From positions 1 to 64,000 of the IMG/VR virus record IMGVR_UViG_3300017971_000004: 64,000 nucleotides of DNA; one strand, given 5' to 3'. Made by a program: the position numbers and the translations under genes. Below are positions 5,773-62,152 of the stretch, in pieces. A model generated the notes under the pieces. The model searched no databases. It had not been told where the DNA came from and saw nothing but the letters and a program-made list of their open reading frames with translations. Source of the DNA: a virus (taxonomy: Duplodnaviria > Heunggongvirae > Uroviricota > Caudoviricetes). The first letter of the stretch is position 1. Each line of letters begins with the position of its first letter.

Positions 5773-6450
5773 TCACCTCGTCGTGATCGTGGGCCGGAAA
5801 ACCATCGTGGTGGCGTTCCGGGCAAAACCAATCTCCTGTTGAACCGTCCAGCCAACCGGAGGCGTCGTCGCAAAACTTCCCGACGCCGCCAGAAAGTACG
5901 TAGCGCCGGGAGTCAGCGACCAGGCCCCGTTGGTGATTTCACTGCCGTAAGCGATGTCGCAGGTCGTGCCGCCCCCGTAGACGGAGATGACCATTCCCCG
6001 AGCCGCGCTGCCCACGACGGCATCCGCCGTGCTCACGGTATCGGCAGCGCTGATATAGACCAGATCTCCGACCGCCGTCCCCAGAGAGCAAGTGAATCCC
6101 GTCCCGATGAAGGCTACACCGCCCGAGACTCGAAGATCGTAGGTGACTCCCAGCTGGTCCGTAAACTTGATCGGATATCCGATGGCAGGTCCGGCAGAAG
6201 TATCGATCCAGAGAGTGGGCGCTCCAGGAGGACCCGGAGAGGACGCGTGACCGGTGGGGTCGAACTGGAGACCTCCGGTTCCAATGATCGGCAGATTGTC
6301 CAGATTGAGCTTCTGCTCCAAGGAGGTGATGGCGGAAGAGAGTGAATTCGGGTGGTTAGCGATGACCTCGTCCACGTTGTCGATCATCGCCGTCGAGAAA
6401 TTGTCGAAGGAGGTTGGATAGGTGCTCGGATACGGCCAGATCGTAGTCAT
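5773..6450 (-). CDS. hypothetical virion-module protein (225 aa)
   Basis: Minus-strand ORF inside the structural block, G/T/S-rich; promoter-like TGAAGTATACT element upstream (6480..6500). Confidence 0.5.
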   Translation of the reverse strand: MTTIWPYPSTYPTSFDNFSTAMIDNVDEVIANHPNSLSSAITSLEQKLNLDNLPIIGTGGLQFDPTGHASSPGPPGAPTLWIDTSAGPAIGYPIKFTDQLGVTYDLRVSGGVAFIGTGFTCSLGTAVGDLVYISAADTVSTADAVVGSAARGMVISVYGGGTTCDIAYGSEITNGAWSLTPGATYFLAASGSFATTPPVGWTVQQEIGFARNATTMVFRPTITTR

Positions 6451-7549: not shown

Positions 7550-8215
7550 CTACAGGAAGATACCTTCGATCTTCAGATCGCAGGTACCGGCGGTTCCGCT
7601 GTCGGCCCCGGCAACACCGACGTACAGCGTGGCGTTGTCGTCCACCGTGGCAATCGCCGTCGTGGTGACATCGATCTCCTTGACGATAGCCTCGCCGACA
7701 CCGACCGCCCCGAGACCCGTGAGAGCCGCAGCGTTGAGCCACTGCGTGCCGCCGGTCGAGGTTCCCAGATTGAGCGTGGCATCCCCGACCAAGGCAGTCG
7801 CGGAGCGGCAAATTGCGGTGGCGCGGAGCGGCAGGAACTTCTGGCTGCCATCACCCGGCAGGTTCACGGTCCACTCCGTGACCGCATCCTTCAGATCGAT
7901 GCCCTGGACGATGACCGAGGCGATACCCTCGGCCATGTCCGCCACGCCGTCCGAGTCCAGATCGAACAAGGTGCCGTTCTGGATCGCCGACATCTGGGAA
8001 GCAGTCAGGATGCGACCGCTCGCGTTGCCCACGCGGACCCGGATCTTGTTGTTGGTGATGAAGGTCGCACAGTCTTCGCAGAACTGCTTGTTGCCGAGCA
8101 CGTCCTTCACGTCGACGGTCGCGCTGGAAGCGCCGACGATCTTGACGTTCGGAAGACCTTCGTCCCCCGAAATGCTGATGTTCCCCGAAGTCAGACCCTC
8201 GATGTAGAGATTCAT
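7550..8215 (-). CDS. putative virion structural protein (221 aa)
   Basis: Strong AAGGAGAG RBS and an upstream TGATATACT extended -10-like element (8263..8278); A/G/T-rich beta-type composition; sits next to terminase. Confidence 0.5.
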   Translation of the reverse strand: MNLYIEGLTSGNISISGDEGLPNVKIVGASSATVDVKDVLGNKQFCEDCATFITNNKIRVRVGNASGRILTASQMSAIQNGTLFDLDSDGVADMAEGIASVIVQGIDLKDAVTEWTVNLPGDGSQKFLPLRATAICRSATALVGDATLNLGTSTGGTQWLNAAALTGLGAVGVGEAIVKEIDVTTTAIATVDDNATLYVGVAGADSGTAGTCDLKIEGIFL

Positions 8216-8262
8216 TTTCGCTCTCCTTGCCGATCCTACCGGGAAGTCTCTCCCATGATTCC

Positions 8263-8278
8263 GCGCCAGTATATCATG
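8263..8278 (-). promoter_or_regulatory. sigma70-like extended -10 (TGATATACT) upstream of structural gene 7550..8215
   Basis: Minus-strand GATCATGATATACTGG followed ~45 nt later by AAGGAGAG RBS and ATG. Confidence 0.3.
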
Positions 8279-8314
8279 ATCATTTTGGCTTTTCTAAAAA
8301 TCGCCGAACTTGAC

Positions 8315-10567
8315 CTACCAGTTCGCCGGACCCCGGAAGTTCATGCCGACCATCGAGGTATCCGTGGCGACCTGGCGCTTCCGAACGGCCCGGCGCTTCT
8401 TGGTCTCGGCCAGCTCGTCGACGATGGAGTTCTGCACCAGCTGGTGGACGCCGATGTAGCAGCGGGCCAGGTCGTCCGAGTCGCGACCGCGCATCTTTCC
8501 CTTGTTGGGATTGTGGAACTTCCGCAGATCAGGAGTTCGAGAGAGCTTCAGAAGCTCCACCAGAGCCACGGAGCGGCCCTCCATCTGCTCCTGAGGCGTT
8601 CCTACGACCAGACTACCCTTGTCGGATAAACCGACCATATCGTCCGTCCTGGGGGCCAGCAGGCTCACCCTGCCGTTGTAGGTCATCCGGAGGAATCCCA
8701 TGAAGTGCTCGGGCTTGAGCGTGACCTTGGTGGCCATGATTCCCATCGTCCTGATCTGCTGGATGGTCGACTCGGAGTTCCAGCGGTCGAAGGCGATGGA
8801 GGCGATCCTGATCTTCTTGCGCAGCTGCTCGATGACATTGACCACCGAGTTGAACCAGATGTCGCGCTCGTTGGTCGGGACGATGCGCACGGCGAAATCG
8901 ATGACGGTGGCCATCATCTCGCCACGATGATCGTAGGGGATATTGCCGGACGGCATCGCCGAGAATGCGCGCATCATCCTGCGCTGCTCCTGCTGCGAGG
9001 AGATGATCATCGGCGCGTCGGCGGCGACCGCCATCCCGGATCCGAGATAAGTGCCCATGTCCTCGGCCAGGACCACGTCGAACGGGGTCACCGGCTCGAT
9101 GCGTCCACGACCCGTCCCGATCTTCGAGAGCTTGCGGTCACCGTTCTCATCCTCATCCCCCTCCTCTTCGAGGTCCTCGGCACTGATCCACTCGGGATGG
9201 GCGCAGACGAGCGCGAAGGAGTCCCAGCTCAGACCGGCGTCACCGAAAATGTAGTAGGTGTTGACCTGATCGAGCTGACAGCGGTCCAAATCGATGCCGA
9301 CGTACTGCTTGCCAGTGGCGTCGTTCAAGTAGGTTTCGGCGAAGGTGGCGATGGGCTCCCTCTCCCAGTCGATGCTCTTCCAGAACCGGAGCGGATCATC
9401 GACGTAAGGCATGTCGGCATTCGGAGGAGAGGCCCCGAAGTCGCGCTCTGCGGCGATGGGATCTTTCACGTACTCCTCGTCGAAGAGATGTCGAGGCATG
9501 TGCGGATTGAACTCCCAGGTCGCCCCCTTCCAGCCGTAGGTCTTCTTCAGCTCGCCGGCCTCGGCCTTGTAGTAGGTCTGCATGGCAGGGTCATCCTGGG
9601 CAAGCGGACTCGTGACGTTGATCATCAGGCCCAGGAACGAAGGGAGGTGGTTCAGCTCCTGCGAGGCCCTGACGGTCTTCAACGACTGGTTGAGCACGCG
9701 GTACAGCTCCTGCGCAGACCGGGTGCCCTCGGTGTCGACGAGACGCGCCCACTCATCGATGGAGGCCATGATCCTGGTCTTGCCAGCGATGCCCGCCGAG
9801 TCGGAGGCGATCCGGTTGAACCGGCACATCAGGTAACCGTCCAAGATGGCGTCGTCGTTGATACGATATTTCCACTTATCGACGGCGTTGCCGATCTGCT
9901 TCTTCTCCTCAGCCCGGACCCACTCCATGTACTTGCGAATCCACGGAGAATTGTTCCGCATTTCTCGATACTTGGCATAGATGGTCTGAGCTGCCTGAGT
10001 CGCAGTCGATGCGGCGAAGGTCACCTCGAACCACTCGGATCTCTCCTGTTTGAGCAGCCGCTGGAGCGCACCCCTGCTGTCAACGCCTCGGGTGATGAGG
10101 AAGTGCTCGAAGTAGCCTCCAATGTGTGCGCCTGTGAAGCTCTTGCCCGAGCGCATGCCGGCGATGACGATCATCTCGTTGTACGGCAACAGGATGGCGT
10201 CTTCGTAGAACTCGCGCTGGGTGCTGCGGCAGCGGGGGCAGACGAAGTCCTGCTCCGACTCATTCCAGACGAGCAGAGTCTCCGACTCCAGGTAGAGCCG
10301 ACTCTTGCCCCAACAATCGATGTCCTCCGGCTTCATCGAGTTGCAGATAGGGCAGCGCAGGTTGAAGACGTCGCGCAGGATCTGATACTGGCGACTGTGA
10401 TCGAACGTGCTCGGAACATTCCAGTAGTCGATACCGGTAATCCACTCAATGATGTTCGGAGCCGGCCTCCGCAGATATTCAACATCGATGTCACGCTCGC
10501 GGCTCTTGCCTTTGATGACGCCGTCGATTCGCGACGTCATGCGGTCGATGAACTCGTGATTACTCAT
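8315..10567 (-). CDS. terL: terminase large subunit (750 aa)
   Basis: Walker A VIAGMRSGKSF; N-terminal Cys4 (CPICN...CPRC); C-terminal acidic nuclease-type region (IFGDAGLSWDSFALVCAH). Size and order (ATPase then nuclease) typical of TerL. Confidence 0.8.
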   Translation of the reverse strand: MSNHEFIDRMTSRIDGVIKGKSRERDIDVEYLRRPAPNIIEWITGIDYWNVPSTFDHSRQYQILRDVFNLRCPICNSMKPEDIDCWGKSRLYLESETLLVWNESEQDFVCPRCRSTQREFYEDAILLPYNEMIVIAGMRSGKSFTGAHIGGYFEHFLITRGVDSRGALQRLLKQERSEWFEVTFAASTATQAAQTIYAKYREMRNNSPWIRKYMEWVRAEEKKQIGNAVDKWKYRINDDAILDGYLMCRFNRIASDSAGIAGKTRIMASIDEWARLVDTEGTRSAQELYRVLNQSLKTVRASQELNHLPSFLGLMINVTSPLAQDDPAMQTYYKAEAGELKKTYGWKGATWEFNPHMPRHLFDEEYVKDPIAAERDFGASPPNADMPYVDDPLRFWKSIDWEREPIATFAETYLNDATGKQYVGIDLDRCQLDQVNTYYIFGDAGLSWDSFALVCAHPEWISAEDLEEEGDEDENGDRKLSKIGTGRGRIEPVTPFDVVLAEDMGTYLGSGMAVAADAPMIISSQQEQRRMMRAFSAMPSGNIPYDHRGEMMATVIDFAVRIVPTNERDIWFNSVVNVIEQLRKKIRIASIAFDRWNSESTIQQIRTMGIMATKVTLKPEHFMGFLRMTYNGRVSLLAPRTDDMVGLSDKGSLVVGTPQEQMEGRSVALVELLKLSRTPDLRKFHNPNKGKMRGRDSDDLARCYIGVHQLVQNSIVDELAETKKRRAVRKRQVATDTSMVGMNFRGPANW

Positions 10568-56167: not shown

Positions 56168-56524
56168 TCAGCTCACCTTGAACCTCTTGTAGAAGTTCTC
56201 GTACTCTTTCCGGATGTTCCGACCCAGCAGATCCGAGCAGACCCGGACCGCGTACTCGTTGGCGTGCTTCTCGCTCTGATACCTCCGAGCCAGCCTGCCG
56301 AACCGGTAGCCGCGCGGATAGGTGTAGATGTGCCCCATCTCATGCGCGAGCACGAAGAGCTTCTCCAGCGCGCTGAAGCCCGGCGCGATGACGATGGTGT
56401 ACTGGCATTCGATGTGGGGGACGACATAGCCGTACTTCTCCAGATCGAACACCACGATGCAAGGGCGCTCGGCCCCCAGCTGGTTCTTCACCATCGCGAC
56501 GGCGGCAGGAGGAGAGAGCTTCAT
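56168..56524 (-). CDS. ImmA/IrrE-family metallopeptidase-like protein (118 aa)
   Basis: FVLAHEMGHIY HExxH motif in a small protein; start moved to MKLSPPAAV. Confidence 0.5.
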   Translation of the reverse strand: MKLSPPAAVAMVKNQLGAERPCIVVFDLEKYGYVVPHIECQYTIVIAPGFSALEKLFVLAHEMGHIYTYPRGYRFGRLARRYQSEKHANEYAVRVCSDLLGRNIRKEYENFYKRFKVS

Positions 56525-56526
56525 CT

Positions 56527-56775
56527 TCAATCTCCCGCCAGCTTCCGTAGGGCCTTGACCACCTTCTTCTTGGTCTCGGGGTCCATGATGGCCTGGTTGG
56601 TCCAGGCCCACTGTACGCGCCGCCTCATGTGGGGAGCCGGGGGCTCGAACGCGCCGTTGGCCACGAGCTTGTCCATCCGAGGATGCAGCACCGTGAAGCG
56701 CCCGTTCTGGAAGTACCGCACCTCCAGCTGCGTCGAGTACGAGACCTTGGCCGTCGCGATTTCGAGTTGAGGCAC
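56527..56775 (-). CDS. hypothetical protein (82 aa)
   Basis: Minus ORF. Confidence 0.4.
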   Translation of the reverse strand: MPQLEIATAKVSYSTQLEVRYFQNGRFTVLHPRMDKLVANGAFEPPAPHMRRRVQWAWTNQAIMDPETKKKVVKALRKLAGD

Positions 56776-56776
56776 C

Positions 56777-57451
56777 TCAGTCTCCAGGCTTCCTGTCGCG
56801 GGCCTGGAGGCGCTCCAGGCTCTCCTCCAGCGTCAGGCCGACGAAGGCCATGAAGAGCACGGTGCCGTCCTCTGCGAGCCCCCTGAGCGTCTGGGAGGGC
56901 AGCTCCTCGTTTATCCTGATCTCGGCGGTGGCGAGATAGTCGGGAACCTTCGTCGACATCCTGCCGACGAGGCCCTCGGCAATCTCTGCCCGGGAAAGCG
57001 ACGGCTCGATGATCGCGGACATGTTCTGAACCACATCGCTCATCAGCGACCGGTTCAGCTCGATCTTCGCCGTCGTGCGCCCGTTGCACACCGCGTCGAG
57101 CGTGTCGAGGGTGAGCGCAGGGATGCGGTCGGGCTTGTAGGGAGCGCCTTCCACCTCGACCACGGGCACGTTCGGCTTCCAACCGCCGCAGTTCCAGTGA
57201 GCCGCTGTGTAGGGCCACTGGGAGAGGCCGAAGTTCTCGTCGGTAGTGTCGATCAGGTGCGCGTAGTTCCAGATGACGTGAGGCGGCGCTCGGCGACAGG
57301 GCTGCATCACAACGTCGGTGCCCTCCAGCTTGCGCGGCTCGTCCTTGGGGGCCATGCCCCAGGCCCGACAGTTGTCGCACCTGCGCGGCCAAGGCTCGTC
57401 GTCGGACAGCTCGAATCCCATCGCCTCCGCGTACTCTTTCTTGCTTTCCAT
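56777..57451 (-). CDS. hypothetical protein (224 aa)
   Basis: Minus ORF. Confidence 0.45.
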   Translation of the reverse strand: MESKKEYAEAMGFELSDDEPWPRRCDNCRAWGMAPKDEPRKLEGTDVVMQPCRRAPPHVIWNYAHLIDTTDENFGLSQWPYTAAHWNCGGWKPNVPVVEVEGAPYKPDRIPALTLDTLDAVCNGRTTAKIELNRSLMSDVVQNMSAIIEPSLSRAEIAEGLVGRMSTKVPDYLATAEIRINEELPSQTLRGLAEDGTVLFMAFVGLTLEESLERLQARDRKPGD

Positions 57452-57466
57452 CTCAGCTCCTCAACT

Positions 57467-58819
57467 TCAATCTTCCGTGAGCGCGGCCTCGACCTCGTCG
57501 AGCCTGAAACGTTGGAGACGGTCAGGACCCAGGTAGTGGACCGGAATGCTTCCTTGGTCCACCCACTTCTGTACCTTCTTCACGGTCGTCGAGAAGTGCT
57601 GTGCGATCGTTTCGATGTCAACAAACTTTCCCGGAGACACCGAAGGCGGAGCTGAAGAAGGTTCGTTCTCCGTCACCTCCTCCTGTTCCGGCTGCGAAGG
57701 AGGTTCAGACGGAACATCGAGGATCCGGATGATGGTTCTCCGATTCCTCCCCTTTCCGTTTTCGATCAACTTCGCGCCTCGCAGCTTTCGGAACACTCCG
57801 GTGACCGTGCTCAGGTGCAAACTCAACGCGGTGCCGAAGTCCGCAGCCCGGGTTGCAACGACATGAGAGGGGGACTTAGCTGCCTCCTTCCAGAGATAAA
57901 GCGCGACCTTGAGCACCGAGTCACCCCGAAGCTCCTGAACACGCTGGAACCACTCCCAAGGGAAGTCCTCGGCCCACTTGAAGTGATCGTCCGACAAAAC
58001 CGGAGGCACCTCCACCTGCTGCTCAGGAAGATCAACTTCTTTCGAGGGCGTCTTCTTTTTCGAAGATGCCTTTTTCGTAGGTACAGACGGTTCCTCGAAG
58101 GGAGCGATCTGGAGGTCCTGATCAGGATCCAACGCCTGCATGCGGATGAGATCCTGAGCCGCCTGGAAGTCGATTGCCACGGTCGACGATCTCCGAGAAG
58201 AGCGTCCGGGAATGTGCAACGACGCCGCGTAGTGCTTGGTATTCTTGAACTTCCCGTGAAAGGTGGGATAAAGAATCTTCACCGCATCCGCGACGTCCTG
58301 TAGAAGATACGGCTTCGCTTCGGGAAGGGTGTTGTCCGGCAGCAACTTGCACTTACTGATCGCCTTCTTCACATCTTCGACCTTGAAGAACGCGGTGGCG
58401 AAGTCAGGATCCAAAGGCCTGTGCCGCTCCCGAAGTCCGCAGTAGAACGCGAGATGGCAGACCATGTCCCGAGTGAGCTTCGTCTCTTGAAGCAGCTCCT
58501 TCAAAGGGAGCCAAGCCGTATCTTTGAGATCCGCGAGCCCGTACTTCTGGAGAACGGCGCTCAGATCTTGCGCCGAGATTTCCTGAACTTCGGGAAGCGT
58601 GTCAGGGGGGTAACCGTCTCCCGTCCCGGGGGGCGCAGCATCAGGCACAGGCGGCGTGACTGCTTCTCCGATCGGCTGCCCTATACCCAACGAAGGAGGA
58701 GCCTGTGCAGGAACAGGAGGGAGTTCCGCTTTCTGCTCCGGGTTATCCTGGGTGTTGTCACTCTCGGGGTTGTTCTGGTCTCGATTCTTTTCATCTTCGG
58801 ACATCTCGTACTCCTCCAT
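57467..58819 (-). CDS. DNA-binding protein with winged-helix and C-terminal excisionase-type HTH (450 aa)
   Basis: C-terminal FVDIETIAQHFSTTVKKVQKWVDQGSIPVHYLGPDRLQRFRLDEVEAAL (HTH_17-like); acidic/Pro-rich low-complexity N-terminus. Lies immediately downstream of the CRISPR array. Confidence 0.5.
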   Translation of the reverse strand: MEEYEMSEDEKNRDQNNPESDNTQDNPEQKAELPPVPAQAPPSLGIGQPIGEAVTPPVPDAAPPGTGDGYPPDTLPEVQEISAQDLSAVLQKYGLADLKDTAWLPLKELLQETKLTRDMVCHLAFYCGLRERHRPLDPDFATAFFKVEDVKKAISKCKLLPDNTLPEAKPYLLQDVADAVKILYPTFHGKFKNTKHYAASLHIPGRSSRRSSTVAIDFQAAQDLIRMQALDPDQDLQIAPFEEPSVPTKKASSKKKTPSKEVDLPEQQVEVPPVLSDDHFKWAEDFPWEWFQRVQELRGDSVLKVALYLWKEAAKSPSHVVATRAADFGTALSLHLSTVTGVFRKLRGAKLIENGKGRNRRTIIRILDVPSEPPSQPEQEEVTENEPSSAPPSVSPGKFVDIETIAQHFSTTVKKVQKWVDQGSIPVHYLGPDRLQRFRLDEVEAALTED

Positions 58820-58917
58820 GTCGTGGCTCGGTTGTTCTCCGTTCTCGACCTCGCGTACCTTCCTTGACCAGAGGAAGGGGAGTAGCTAGTTCCCGCGAAG
58901 TTCTCCTTTTCCACAAA

Positions 58918-58952
58918 CTCTTTCTCAACATACAGTGAACAGATCTCTCGAT
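58918..58952. repeat. left 35-bp inverted repeat flanking the CRISPR array
   Basis: ctctttctcaacatacagtgaacagatctctcgat; 32/35 identical to the reverse complement of 59866..59900. Confidence 0.8.
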
Positions 58953-58967
58953 GTCATGGACCGTGCT

Positions 58968-59730
58968 GTCGAGACTTCTAACCCGTCTCGCAGGGATTGA
59001 AGGATCGAACTCCCAAGATCTGGAGGCCCGCGATGCCGAAGTCGAGACTTCTAACCCGTCTCGCAGGGATTGAAGGGCGGTGCGGGTCCTATCATCGCTA
59101 CTTGGGACATCGGTGTCGAGACTTCTAACCCGTCTCGCAGGGATTGAAGGAAATGGAGTCCATCGAACCCAACATCGTCGAAATGTCGAGACTTCTAACC
59201 CGTCTCGCAGGGATTGAAGGTAACTAGACTGAGAATAGCTTGGTTATGTGAAATGCGTCGAGACTTCTAACCCGTCTCGCAGGGATTGAAGAAACGTGTT
59301 GAAAACGTGCTACGAGCCGGACAACATGTCGAGACTTCTAACCCGTCTCGCAGGGATTGAAGGGAAGCTACCGTCGCCTACGCGACCAGCGAGCCCATCT
59401 GTCGAGACTTCTAACCCGTCTCGCAGGGATTGAAGGATCGATAGCCGGGCGGCGCACGCCTCCGTTGCGCTGTCGAGACTTCTAACCCGTCTCGCAGGGA
59501 TTGAAGGCGGAGCGATCTCGCCGGGCAGTTCGAGCCACAACTCCGGGGGTCGAGACTTCTAACCCGTCTCGCAGGGATTGAAGGCGGTTTTCCGCCTCGG
59601 TACCCGAGGTCGGATCAAGATGTCGAGACTTCTAACCCGTCTCGCAGGGATTGAAGGGAGTGAAAAGATCGACGCCCTCTCGTGATGCTGCTTCGTCGAG
59701 ACTTCTAACCCGTCTCGCAGGGATTGAAGG
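58968..59730 (-). CRISPR. CRISPR array, 11 x 36-bp repeats, 10 spacers (34-41 bp)
   Basis: Plus-strand repeat GTCGAGACTTCTAACCCGTCTCGCAGGGATTGAAGG at 58968, 59041, 59115, 59185, 59257, 59328, 59401, 59472, 59549, 59622, 59695. All are identical except repeat 5, whose last G is A. Repeat contains a 6-bp hairpin CGAGAC/GTCTCG. Strand call is minus because the hairpin then sits at the 3' end of the repeat next to the spacer, and the array is co-directional with the cas12-like gene. Confidence 0.9.
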
Positions 59731-59865
59731 GGCGCGTTCCGCGACTTCAATGATCGCGGCGAGATAACCACCCGATTTCGAGCGGTCCGTTTTTCGCTCG
59801 AACGCGCTCCCGATTTTTTCAATCATTTCGAACGATGAACTCCTCCACCGATCCACCGCTCGAAA

Positions 59866-59900
59866 ATCGAGAGATCTGTTCACTGCATGTTGTCAAAGAG
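59866..59900. repeat. right 35-bp inverted repeat flanking the CRISPR array
   Basis: atcgagagatctgttcactgcatgttgtcaaagag; ends 11 nt before the cas12-like stop codon. Confidence 0.8.
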
Positions 59901-59911
59901 CTTTCGAACTT

Positions 59912-62110
59912 CTAAGACTCTAGAGGAGCCGGGCCTTCGCCGTTCCGCTCCTCTTCTTCCTTTTTCCGCTTCCGAACGACTTTCTTCCCCTTGTTCCGGT
60001 TCTTCTGAGCGTCCGACATCTCCCGCACGAGCACGCTGCCATCGGCTATCTTGACGATCTTGTTCTCTCGGTACAGCCGCATCATGTTCCGGGCCGCGTT
60101 CGCGTCCTGGTCCCAGGTGCGACCGCACTTCTCGCAGGTGTGCTCCACCTTCGGAATCGGGTCCCAGGGCGCATCGTGCCCGCAGTCGAAGCAGCGCTGG
60201 GTGGTCATGGCCGGGTTCACCCAGACGACCGTGCCGCCACGCGAGAGGAACGCCTGGATGAGCGTCTCGCGGAACTCGGAGAGCGCCGCTTCTTTCTGCT
60301 GCCGCCGCGCCCGCCGGATCTCGACCTTGTCGCTTCCCGGAAGCTCATGCTTCTGCATCTTGCTCAGATCGATATTTTCGAGCACGAGGACCTTGAACTC
60401 CCGCGCCAGCGCAGAGTCCACGCACCGGTAGTGATCCTCGCGCTGCAACAGCGACTTGCGCCGCTGGCTCTCCTGCCACTGCCAGAGGTGCCGGTCGCCG
60501 CCTTCGAGACGCCGCGCCTCCTCGTCGTAGACGCCTCGCTGCCAGCGGTCCAGGATCTCGAAGCCCCGTTCGTCCCCCTTCCACCGCGACTCCCTCCAGA
60601 GCCGCAGCAGCCACGCGAACCGCTTGGGGGCCTCCCACTTGGCGATGCCCCGGGTCGACTCCCTGAACCACTTCGGCAGCGCGCTGCGCCGCGCCTTGAT
60701 CCACGCCCGAAGCTCGGCCAGCATTTCGTTCTGCTTCAGCTGCCGGGTCTGCTGGAGCGTTTCGACGCGCTGGAACCCGGCGACCACCTTCGACGACATG
60801 CACTGCTCGTGGCCCACCTCACCCTCGTCCGGGTTCTTAAGATAGGCGGCGTACTCTCGATCATCGATCAGGTACGCGATCCGGATTCGGGGCACCTCCA
60901 CCTCCTGCTTCCGCAGCCCCCGCTTCTTCCGCTTCCTACCCATCTCCACCGTCTCGGTCCCTCGCTTGCGCCAACCGATATCGACGGCCACGACCCCGCG
61001 CCCCGTCCCGTAGTCCTTGTGACAATCCCCCGAATCCACCTCCAGATGGAGGTGCAACGTCCACCGGAGCCGGGTGGTGATCTTCTCCCGCTTCACGACC
61101 GCCCACTTGATGCGCGCCTTCGGAGGCAGCGGACGATGCATGATCACTGGGAACTCCGCCCAGATGGGATCACGACCGCTCTTTCCGCCGCTGCCGACCC
61201 GGATTCGAGCGATGCCGCGTCGACGTATCCTCCGATGCCGGAGCACCTCCTCCCCCATCTCGGGCTCCATGTCCAGCTGGAACATGGTGTTCTGGCAGTT
61301 CAGGACGCGCTCGACGGAATCCCCCTTCTGGAGTTCGACGCCGAAGATCACCTCATCATCGAGACTCTTGAACTTGGGGTCTCGCTCGACCCAGATGCCC
61401 TTCTCCTCGTTCCACTTCCAGAGGCTGTCCCTCAGCGACATCCGAGAAGCCTCCCGCGCCCTGTTCACCAGGAGATAGGTCCCCCAGTAGAGCTTCCCCA
61501 GCTCCTCGTCCGTCTCGGTCACCTTCTCGTAGGTTCCATCCTTGAATTGCACGTAGGCTTCGTGCAACTCCTGCTTCTCCCGCTGCTGGGCTTCCGCGCG
61601 CCGAGCCTTCAACTCGTCGCTTAACTCCACCTTCTTCCTCGGCTCCTCCTTCCCCGGCTCGTCGTCCGACTCGGAACCGTTCTTCAACTCCCGCAGCTTT
61701 GCCCACGCCTCGTTCTTGAGATCGCGCACCTCCCGGAGACGCATCCGCTCCTGCGGGGTGTCGGACCGGGATCGAGACCTCTTGCGCTTCGTCCTGAGAT
61801 CCTCCTGCATCTCCCGGAGGAGCTTTTCGAGACGCTTGACCTCGGTGAAGGCTTCCCGCATCTCGTCGCTCGCCCCCATCAGGTCCAGAGTGTGCTGCTG
61901 GTAGATTTCCCGAAGAGTCGCCCGCAGACGACGCTCCGCCTCCACACACTGGTTGTTGTACCGCTGCGACAGGACGATCTGCTTCTCCACCAGTTCGGCG
62001 TTCTTCGTCGGACCGAACGGCAGCCCATACACATAGGCGAGCTGGGGACCTCGGACCCTCGGCTTGCCCGGCTTCTTCTTCCGTTTCGTCTTCGATGTCT
62101 TGCGCGTCAT
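59912..62110 (-). CDS. cas12: Cas12-family (TnpB-derived) type V CRISPR effector candidate (732 aa)
   Basis: RuvC-I GVVAVDIGWRKRG; RuvC-II VLVLENIDLSKMQK; Zn ribbon CFDCGHDAPW...HTCEKCGRT followed by RuvC-III WDQDANAARNMM (compare ISDra2 TnpB AGVDVGI / IGTEHLKPDNM / CHDCG...CPNCGETHDRDENAALNI). N-terminal TnpB-like segment QLAYVYGLPFGPTKNAELVEKQIVLSQRYNNQC. A K/R/E-rich coiled-coil insertion of ~300 aa gives Cas12 size. Directly abuts the CRISPR array. GGGAGA RBS plus the CTTGTATATTAAC motif upstream. Confidence 0.75.
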   Translation of the reverse strand: MTRKTSKTKRKKKPGKPRVRGPQLAYVYGLPFGPTKNAELVEKQIVLSQRYNNQCVEAERRLRATLREIYQQHTLDLMGASDEMREAFTEVKRLEKLLREMQEDLRTKRKRSRSRSDTPQERMRLREVRDLKNEAWAKLRELKNGSESDDEPGKEEPRKKVELSDELKARRAEAQQREKQELHEAYVQFKDGTYEKVTETDEELGKLYWGTYLLVNRAREASRMSLRDSLWKWNEEKGIWVERDPKFKSLDDEVIFGVELQKGDSVERVLNCQNTMFQLDMEPEMGEEVLRHRRIRRRGIARIRVGSGGKSGRDPIWAEFPVIMHRPLPPKARIKWAVVKREKITTRLRWTLHLHLEVDSGDCHKDYGTGRGVVAVDIGWRKRGTETVEMGRKRKKRGLRKQEVEVPRIRIAYLIDDREYAAYLKNPDEGEVGHEQCMSSKVVAGFQRVETLQQTRQLKQNEMLAELRAWIKARRSALPKWFRESTRGIAKWEAPKRFAWLLRLWRESRWKGDERGFEILDRWQRGVYDEEARRLEGGDRHLWQWQESQRRKSLLQREDHYRCVDSALAREFKVLVLENIDLSKMQKHELPGSDKVEIRRARRQQKEAALSEFRETLIQAFLSRGGTVVWVNPAMTTQRCFDCGHDAPWDPIPKVEHTCEKCGRTWDQDANAARNMMRLYRENKIVKIADGSVLVREMSDAQKNRNKGKKVVRKRKKEEEERNGEGPAPLES

Positions 62111-62137
62111 CTCAATCTCCCATAGCTCGCATCCTCA

Positions 62138-62152
62138 GTTAATATACAAGAA
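62138..62152 (-). promoter_or_regulatory. phage promoter-like motif CTTGTATATTAAC upstream of the cas12-like gene
   Basis: 27 nt upstream of ATG 62110, in the 80-bp intergenic gap. Confidence 0.4.

Follow-up and report, generated by a model that had tools for sequence, protein, structure and literature searches.

Which kind of RNA-guided system does a phage carry when its genome encodes a single RuvC-containing protein next to a CRISPR array and no adaptation genes? Here, we analysed such a locus in a 64,000-nucleotide stretch of viral DNA (positions 1 to 64,000 of the IMG/VR record IMGVR_UViG_3300017971_000004, Caudoviricetes; hereafter 'the window'). A preliminary description had proposed a phage-borne minimal type V system, the effector and repeat of which match no known family and might constitute a new Cas12 subtype. 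The single effector, the array and the lack of adaptation genes stood up to our analysis; the lack of a family match did not. We conclude that the locus is a phage-borne single-effector CRISPR-Cas system of type V-M with an array and without adaptation genes and that its effector, Cas12m, most likely acts as an RNA-guided DNA binder, a reading to which we assign a probability of roughly 85%. Since the locus falls into the known Cas12m family, it does not represent a new Cas12 subtype.

The effector gene, cas12m, is located on the minus strand at 59912..62110 and encodes a protein of 732 amino acids (aa). The motifs described previously are all found within this open reading frame (ORF): VVAVDIGW of RuvC-I with D377, LVLENIDLS of RuvC-II with E578, the zinc ribbon CFDCG...CEKCG (C640/C643/C659/C662) and DQDANAARNM of RuvC-III with D667/D669. 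Residues 24-680 match the PADLOC profile Cas12u1 with E=3.1e-76 and span positions 4-530 of its 533, a full-length match; subtype V-M, with Cas12m as its effector, was formerly named V-U1 or Cas12u1 (PMC11013384). In a search of all PDB sequences, chain 23vw_A, 'Cas12m' (E=3.5e-47), ranked first, and other Cas12m chains were also among the best matches (23vu_A, 1e-16; Cas12m2 8hhl, 3.4e-11; GoCas12m 8pm4, 2.5e-10). An exhaustive HMMER search retrieved 900 relatives at E<=1e-30 from 1.84 billion cluster representatives, nearly all of them 570-650 aa in length. The nearest, P0006 (642 aa), shares 51% identity with the window protein, and no Cas12m relative found exceeds this value. A new Cas12 subtype unrelated to the described families might be suspected from the fact that Pfam recognises nothing except the Cas12f1-like TNB domain (PF07282, E=1.1e-13), that NCBIfam gives only sub-threshold TnpB matches in the C-terminal third and that a word-indexed protein search gave only four relatives. 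Set against the full-length Cas12u1 match, the Cas12m chains in the PDB, the large number of significant relatives and the fold and repeat family described below, this explanation is already refuted and retains next to no probability.

The predicted structure leads to the same assignment. An AlphaFold2 model built on an alignment of 92 Cas12m family sequences (mean predicted local distance difference test score 88.9, predicted template modelling score 0.84) displays the features by which V-M effectors are recognised: a bilobed shape, a helical recognition (REC) lobe or 'Roof', a RuvC domain with helical insertion and a zinc finger. In a Foldseek comparison with the PDB, ranks 1-4 were occupied by Cas12m cryo-electron microscopy structures (E=4e-24 to 2e-18, target template modelling score (TM) 0.77-0.80; 0.77-0.78 for the leading matches 8hhl and 8pm4), followed by Cas12f and TnpB at E of about 1e-8. 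A PADLOC model labelled Cas12f (PDLC01692, 532 positions) also matched at full length (3.6e-70); it covers almost the same stretch as the Cas12u1 model, so its label probably lumps V-U1 sequences. Effectors of the Cas12f type measure about 400-550 aa, are dimeric and require a trans-activating CRISPR RNA. Solved Cas12f chains matched in the zinc ribbon region only (1e-4 to 1e-5) and reached a target TM of 0.41-0.56. No specific relationship to CasPhi (Cas12j), which the preliminary description had cited as a known compact system of huge phages, was apparent. CasPhi-3 (7odf_A) was found with E=1.5e-4 and only over residues 574-716, the C-terminal part of RuvC, while CasLambda gave no match at E<=10 in the search of all PDB sequences. 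Target TM values were 0.23 for CasPhi-2 (7lyt_A) and 0.30 and 0.26 for the CasLambda structures 8dc2_A and 9izm_A, compared to 0.77-0.80 for Cas12m. CasPhi and CasLambda, both of which cut DNA, are likewise small type V systems with one effector that occur on large phages next to an array and lack an adaptation module, but they are not specifically related to the window system. Both its sequence and its predicted fold make the 732-aa protein a Cas12m family member over its full length.

Downstream of cas12m and on the same minus strand lies the CRISPR array (58968..59730). As described before, it comprises eleven repeats (CCTTCAATCCCTGCGAGACGGGTTAGAAGTCTCGAC on the minus strand), which are 36 nucleotides (nt) long and begin 181 nt from the stop codon of the gene; ten repeats are identical and the eleventh differs in a single base. 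The ten spacers have a length of 34-41 nt and a GC content of 36-71%. Read on the strand of the gene, the repeat (CCUUCAAUCCCUGCGAGACGGGUUAGAAGUCUCGAC) is composed of a 5' CAAxCCC segment, a 6-bp hairpin and a 3' GAC directly in front of the spacer, and the loop sequence GGG is able to pair back to CCC as a pseudoknot. Published CRISPR RNA (crRNA) handles of Cas12m have the same layout, for example those of Un (UUGCAAUGCCUGGCUCAGGGGUUAUAGAACUGAGAC) and Ap (UGACAAAGCCCUGUGCAGCGGGCUCAAAGCUGCGAC; PMC11013384, Table S5), and the window repeat can be aligned with the published Ms, Tf, Ap, Un and Go handles. We compiled an alignment of 35 repeats from the window, two variants of the metagenome contig L003, 27 variants of the IMG/VR contig L002 (both contigs are introduced below) and these five handles. 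Compensatory changes occur in all six hairpin pairs, and the proposed pseudoknot pair 9-24 (column 9 with the loop) covaries as well, being G-C in 19, G-U in 6 and A-U in 4 repeats and C-G in the window only. Paired cells amount to 95.5%, compared to 81% after shuffling and 20-52% with partners slid. This covariation of hairpin and pseudoknot fixes the transcribed strand and places the repeat in the Cas12m repeat family, contrary to the claim that it matches no known one. The preliminary description had itself named assignment to a known Cas12 subtype with a matching repeat family as the outcome speaking against novelty, and Cas12m provides both.

An anti-repeat was not detected within about 3.5 kb on either side of the locus (best score 9; shuffled mean 9.7, maximum 13), which agrees with a system free of trans-activating crRNA (tracrRNA), as expected for V-M. 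The repeat core was not found in GTDB genomes, no host array with the window repeat is known, and the exact repeat was not found in the JGI metagenome collection. The same phage was also assembled independently in Logan (L001), where the array appears as a single repeat (6340-6375) between identical flanks. This probably reflects assembly collapse, because the repeat of 36 nt likely exceeds the k-mer of the assembler (the size of which is assumed here), and a natural single-repeat variant is also possible. As a probable artefact, the L001 array was not used as evidence for array variation.

Could the protein instead be a transposon-associated TnpB, i.e. an accessory of IS200/IS605 or IS607 elements, with inverted repeats as element ends and an incidental array? 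TnpB shares the core of WED, RuvC and zinc ribbon with the window protein, the C-terminal half of which matches TnpB models (NF040570, 1.6e-16) and a PHROG annotated as 'transposase' (1.4e-18), and a 38-nt inverted repeat adjoins the gene. These matches are, however, limited to residues of about 525-712 and remain below the curated cut-offs (NF040570, 60.6 versus 100 bits; NF038280, 40.5 versus 350 bits). The inverted repeat surrounds the array and not the gene, and neither the Pfam scan nor the precomputed gene calls revealed TnpA or a transposase domain in the neighbourhood. Instead of an omega-RNA, a CRISPR array is present, its repeat forms a Cas12m crRNA handle, and an array-like repeat run follows the gene in 49 of 63 viral homologues. 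We thus regard a TnpB origin of the locus as extremely improbable. A resemblance between the two groups exists at the RNA level, as the pseudoknot of Cas12m crRNA is similar to the omega-RNA core of TnpB (PMC11013384).

Having assigned the family, we turned to the catalytic residues and counted their conservation on the 92-sequence alignment; all codons given are on the minus strand. The RuvC-I column of Asp377 (60980..60982) shows D in 77 of 92 sequences and N or H in the others, N accounting for 13. At the RuvC-II position of Glu578 (60377..60379), 82 of 92 sequences have E, and Asp669 of RuvC-III (60104..60106, in WDQDANAA) is invariant. The CxxC...CxxC zinc ribbon (60125..60193), which is part of the TNB domain, is similarly conserved, with C640, C643 and C659 present in all sequences and C662 in 89, the other three having gaps. 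The triad D377/E578/D669 is therefore intact, and the window protein shares the D-E-D state with most of its family.

The preliminary description had also pointed to a K/R/E-rich insertion of about 300 aa. This segment turned out to be the REC lobe, which is common to the entire Cas12m family. Its long helices (residues about 38-191, encoded at 61538..61999 on the minus strand) were modelled by AlphaFold2 as H38-78, H82-112, H119-148 and H165-191 and are the counterpart of the arginine-rich helical 'Roof' described for GoCas12m (PMC11013384). Only about 96 residues, distributed over eight short inserts, are specific to the lineage. They make the window protein the longest of the 92 aligned sequences (median 612 aa) and thus the largest Cas12m variant among these relatives, compared to about 570-630 aa in other Cas12m. 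The inserts include a basic N-terminal extension, two 15-residue stretches (149-163 and 187-201) that extend the long REC helices at their tips, a basic stretch of 17 residues in a hairpin following RuvC-I (392-408, RKRKKRGLRKQEVEVPR) and several smaller ones.

How might such a system work? Judged from characterised members of the family, RNA-guided silencing is the likeliest mechanism. The array would be transcribed from or through a leader at 59731..59865 (minus strand), together with or after cas12m, and Cas12m itself would trim the precursor crRNA (pre-crRNA) to guides of about 50 nt; self-processing of pre-crRNA by Cas12m has been reported to be independent of RuvC (PMC11013384). The ribonucleoprotein would then recognise a DNA target flanked by a protospacer-adjacent motif (PAM), stay bound and, without cutting the target, block its transcription or replication. 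For a phage, competing phages or plasmids and possibly also host genes appear as likely targets. The phage probably did not acquire its spacers itself but inherited them and had them reshuffled by recombination; in a sister lineage, the array changed by an internal deletion.

Three observations weigh against this reading. No protospacer was found for any spacer in the databases searched, the conserved leader sequence TTGACA is not followed by a recognisable sigma-70 -10 box in a promoter scan, and the intact D-E-D triad together with the extra basic inserts makes a nuclease activity possible. The last point deserves attention, as a Cas12m-family protein that kept or regained its RuvC nuclease would destroy target DNA in the manner of CasPhi from huge phages. 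Triad and zinc ribbon are intact, the protein is unusually long, its additional basic residues are located near RuvC-I and in the REC helices, and a preprint on MvCas12m (bioRxiv 10.64898/2026.09.14.751636) speculates that the retained triad of that protein indicates nuclease activity. On the other hand, all Cas12m tested so far bind DNA without cutting it. This includes four D-E-D proteins, Ms, Tf, Ap and Un, which bound in a PAM-dependent manner without cleavage of double-stranded DNA (PMC11013384); UnCas12m itself was derived from an IMG/VR scaffold. PAM-dependent binding without cleavage was likewise found for H-D-D and N-D-D proteins in that study, and both PMC10442227 and a preprint on PmCas12m concur. 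Since published D-E-D Cas12m proteins are inactive on double-stranded DNA and D-E-D is the majority state of a non-cutting family, the intact triad alone predicts no cleavage. The catalytic RuvC signature reported earlier is hence real, while the nuclease role implied by it is doubtful, and we consider a cutting enzyme quite unlikely.

To what are the guides directed? When compared with the 64-kb window, the ten spacers gave a best match of 16 nt with one mismatch, which is at chance level. All ten also remained without match in the INPHARED phages and the PLSDB plasmids, as did spacers 10, 9 and 4 (5' 22 nt) in IMG/VR, spacer 7 in 185,579 GTDB species genomes and spacer 10 in the JGI metagenomes. 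A cross-comparison of the window, L006 and L002 arrays with the available DNA of these phages gave no matches above chance. The missing phage and plasmid targets would suit a role as gene regulator of the phage, with natural CRISPR interference aimed at host or phage genes instead of a defence against rival mobile elements. Silencing by binding is what the Cas12m family does, and the locus is situated among small genes of the same strand that encode, inter alia, helix-turn-helix (HTH), IrrE/ImmA-like and LexA-type DNA-binding domains. Against such a role stand the lack of spacer matches in the window, the negative search of spacer 7 in the species genomes and the broad GC range of the spacers, which fits varied foreign sources. 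On balance, a regulatory function appears unlikely to us.

The leader and the surroundings of the array hold a peculiarity of their own. By pairwise alignment, the window leader is homologous to that of L003 (2260-2418), with the conserved blocks TCTTTGACAA, TCGAAA..ATTGAA.AAAT, GGACCGCTCGAAATC (15 nt) and GCGCC. The blocks TCTTTGACAA and GGACCGCTCGAAATC are identical in both, although the two effectors share just 51% identity. Trailers of the two arrays could not be aligned. Leader and array of the window are bracketed as a whole by an inverted repeat of 38 nt, of which 34 are complementary. Its proximal arm (59866..59903), identified in a sequence scan, borders the leader, begins 8 nt past the cas12m stop codon and contains TCTTTGACAA; the distal arm (58915..58952) lies 15 nt past the last repeat. 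An inverted repeat near the stop codon had been noted before and is indeed present, with a length of 38 instead of 35 nt and a distance of 8 instead of 11 nt. Both arms also occur in the independent assembly L001, and neither was found elsewhere within the window (none being expected by chance). Among 42 cas12m-array loci with sufficient flanks, only the window has such a repeat around its array (score 26 versus <=12 in the others). Compared with the L003 leader, the proximal arm contains an insertion that makes up its inner 22 nt.

Does this inverted repeat have a function? By pairing with each other in the sense RNA, the arms could enclose the entire pre-crRNA within a long double-stranded stem, comparable to the processing stems around ribosomal RNA precursors, and a host enzyme of the RNase III type could then cut the array out of a long phage transcript of this strand. 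A second possibility is that the arms serve as DNA-inversion sites that switch guide production on and off. Of the four arm mismatches, two would become G-U pairs in RNA of the minus strand, as read from the arm sequences, and in the predicted fold of a 1-kb transcript the stem closes the array, a result expected from complementarity. A recombinase domain was not seen in the window, neither in the Pfam scan nor in precomputed gene calls, and promoter and terminator scans gave no more sites than shuffled sequence. We give a function in either of these two forms only a small chance; further candidates are a pair of regulator sites or a neutral duplication in inverted orientation. If true, either RNase III excision or inversion would be a new form of viral control over a CRISPR array.

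The genes around the locus are those of a phage, as had been proposed. The window encodes a large terminase (phrog_17415, E=4.6e-41), the closest match of which belongs to the 197-kb Virus Rctr197k (38% identity), followed by other phages of about 200 kb. Weak matches to tail-fibre and baseplate proteins and a helicase were found with PHROGs, the Pfam scan added ThyX, a DHH phosphoesterase and a protein with a DNA-binding domain of the LexA type, and two tRNAs are present. One of them (40652-40724, minus strand) was called as tRNA-Cys with the anticodon ACA in the loop CUACAGA; A34 is unusual in tRNA-Cys, which usually carries the anticodon GCA. From about 5 kb onward, nearly all genes lie on the minus strand. 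Contigs of up to 188,555 bp encode the identical 732-aa protein, and the carrier is a jumbo phage of roughly 200 kb. A DNA similarity search of the locus against known phages gave no match.

In accordance with the preliminary description, no Pfam domain of Cas1, Cas2 or Cas4 was recognised in 54 concatenated ORFs of 70-420 aa from position 270 to about 50,000, with larger ORFs represented by ten that were checked against PHROGs. The same holds true for the precomputed gene calls over 49.9-64 kb and for the immediate neighbours of cas12m. Directly downstream of the array (56168-58819, minus strand), the first gene encodes a protein of 450 aa that weakly matches the HTH domains HTH_Crp_2 and HTH_17 in its C-terminal part. 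A 224-aa ORF comes next, and then a protein of 147 aa with an M78 peptidase domain resembling IrrE/ImmA. The 450-aa and the 147-aa protein could form a regulatory module.

How common are such loci in viruses? The repeat core was found in three IMG/VR contigs of 129, 192 and 206 kb, two of which (L004 and L006) encode a P0006-type protein and have 17 repeats. The 6.4-kb metagenome contig L003 carries the same array (2419-2948) without spacers 4-13. In the long form, spacer 3 is duplicated as spacer 13 and the loss in L003 lies between both copies, which points to recombination and not to acquisition at the leader end. One array observed in three samples thus shows an internal deletion and no gain at the leader end. 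The third of the IMG/VR contigs with the repeat core, L002 (IMGVR_UViG_3300036761_001580, 205.6 kb), encodes a 610-aa protein with 36% identity to the window protein and about 35 repeats. In its array (7841-10295), almost every repeat copy differs, stems vary via compensatory pairs and the repeats are unevenly spaced (47-75 nt), in contrast to the homogeneity of a normal CRISPR array. Scanning IMG/VR with a single conserved peptide pattern, we found that at least 63 loci encode Cas12m relatives, many of them on contigs of 100-210 kb, and the array-like repeat run mentioned above directly follows the gene in 49 of these 63. One contig of 152.9 kb has two Cas12m copies (L058 and L067, among the loci L007-L069). 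V-M loci associated with viruses are hence common in public data and their description has begun; the window adds a further, divergent example.

How does the window system compare with those already studied? Cas12m, or V-M (formerly V-U1), was reportedly the subject of a study by Wu et al. 2022. Reference studies are those of Omura et al. 2023 (PMC10442227) and Bigelyte et al. 2024 (PMC11013384). With the Cas12m of Mm, Go, Ms and Un, the window system shares homology over the full length, the fold with zinc ribbon and helical REC 'Roof', a 36-nt repeat with hairpin, pseudoknot and terminal GAC, the absence of a tracrRNA and the order of gene and array without adaptation genes; the D-E-D triad is shared with Ms, Tf, Ap and Un. 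It differs in the size of its effector, in its location on a jumbo phage together with structural genes and in the inverted repeat around its array, which is absent from the 41 other loci. MvCas12m from myxophage MV-1 was reported as the first phage Cas12m in a September 2026 preprint (bioRxiv 10.64898/2026.09.14.751636). Compared by description, it is likewise a phage-encoded V-M effector with a retained RuvC triad, an adjacent array, no cas1, cas2 or cas4, no tracrRNA and no spacer targets found, but is smaller (610 versus 732 aa) and has eight instead of ten spacers. We did not accept that the 610-aa protein of L002 is MvCas12m; lengths agree, while its RuvC residues are at 310/478 instead of the reported 305/463.

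The locus is thus a further, enlarged member of the known V-M (Cas12m) family and resides on a jumbo phage. Rather than founding a new class of systems, it adds to the dozens of comparable loci already present in IMG/VR. The lengthened REC helices and the basic inserts could be of interest to those who engineer Cas12m for base or epigenome editing. With phage structural genes on the same contig, the window provides a well-supported example of binding-only Cas12m in phages, and such phage Cas12m systems suggest that viruses use programmable silencing, and not cutting, against their rivals or hosts.

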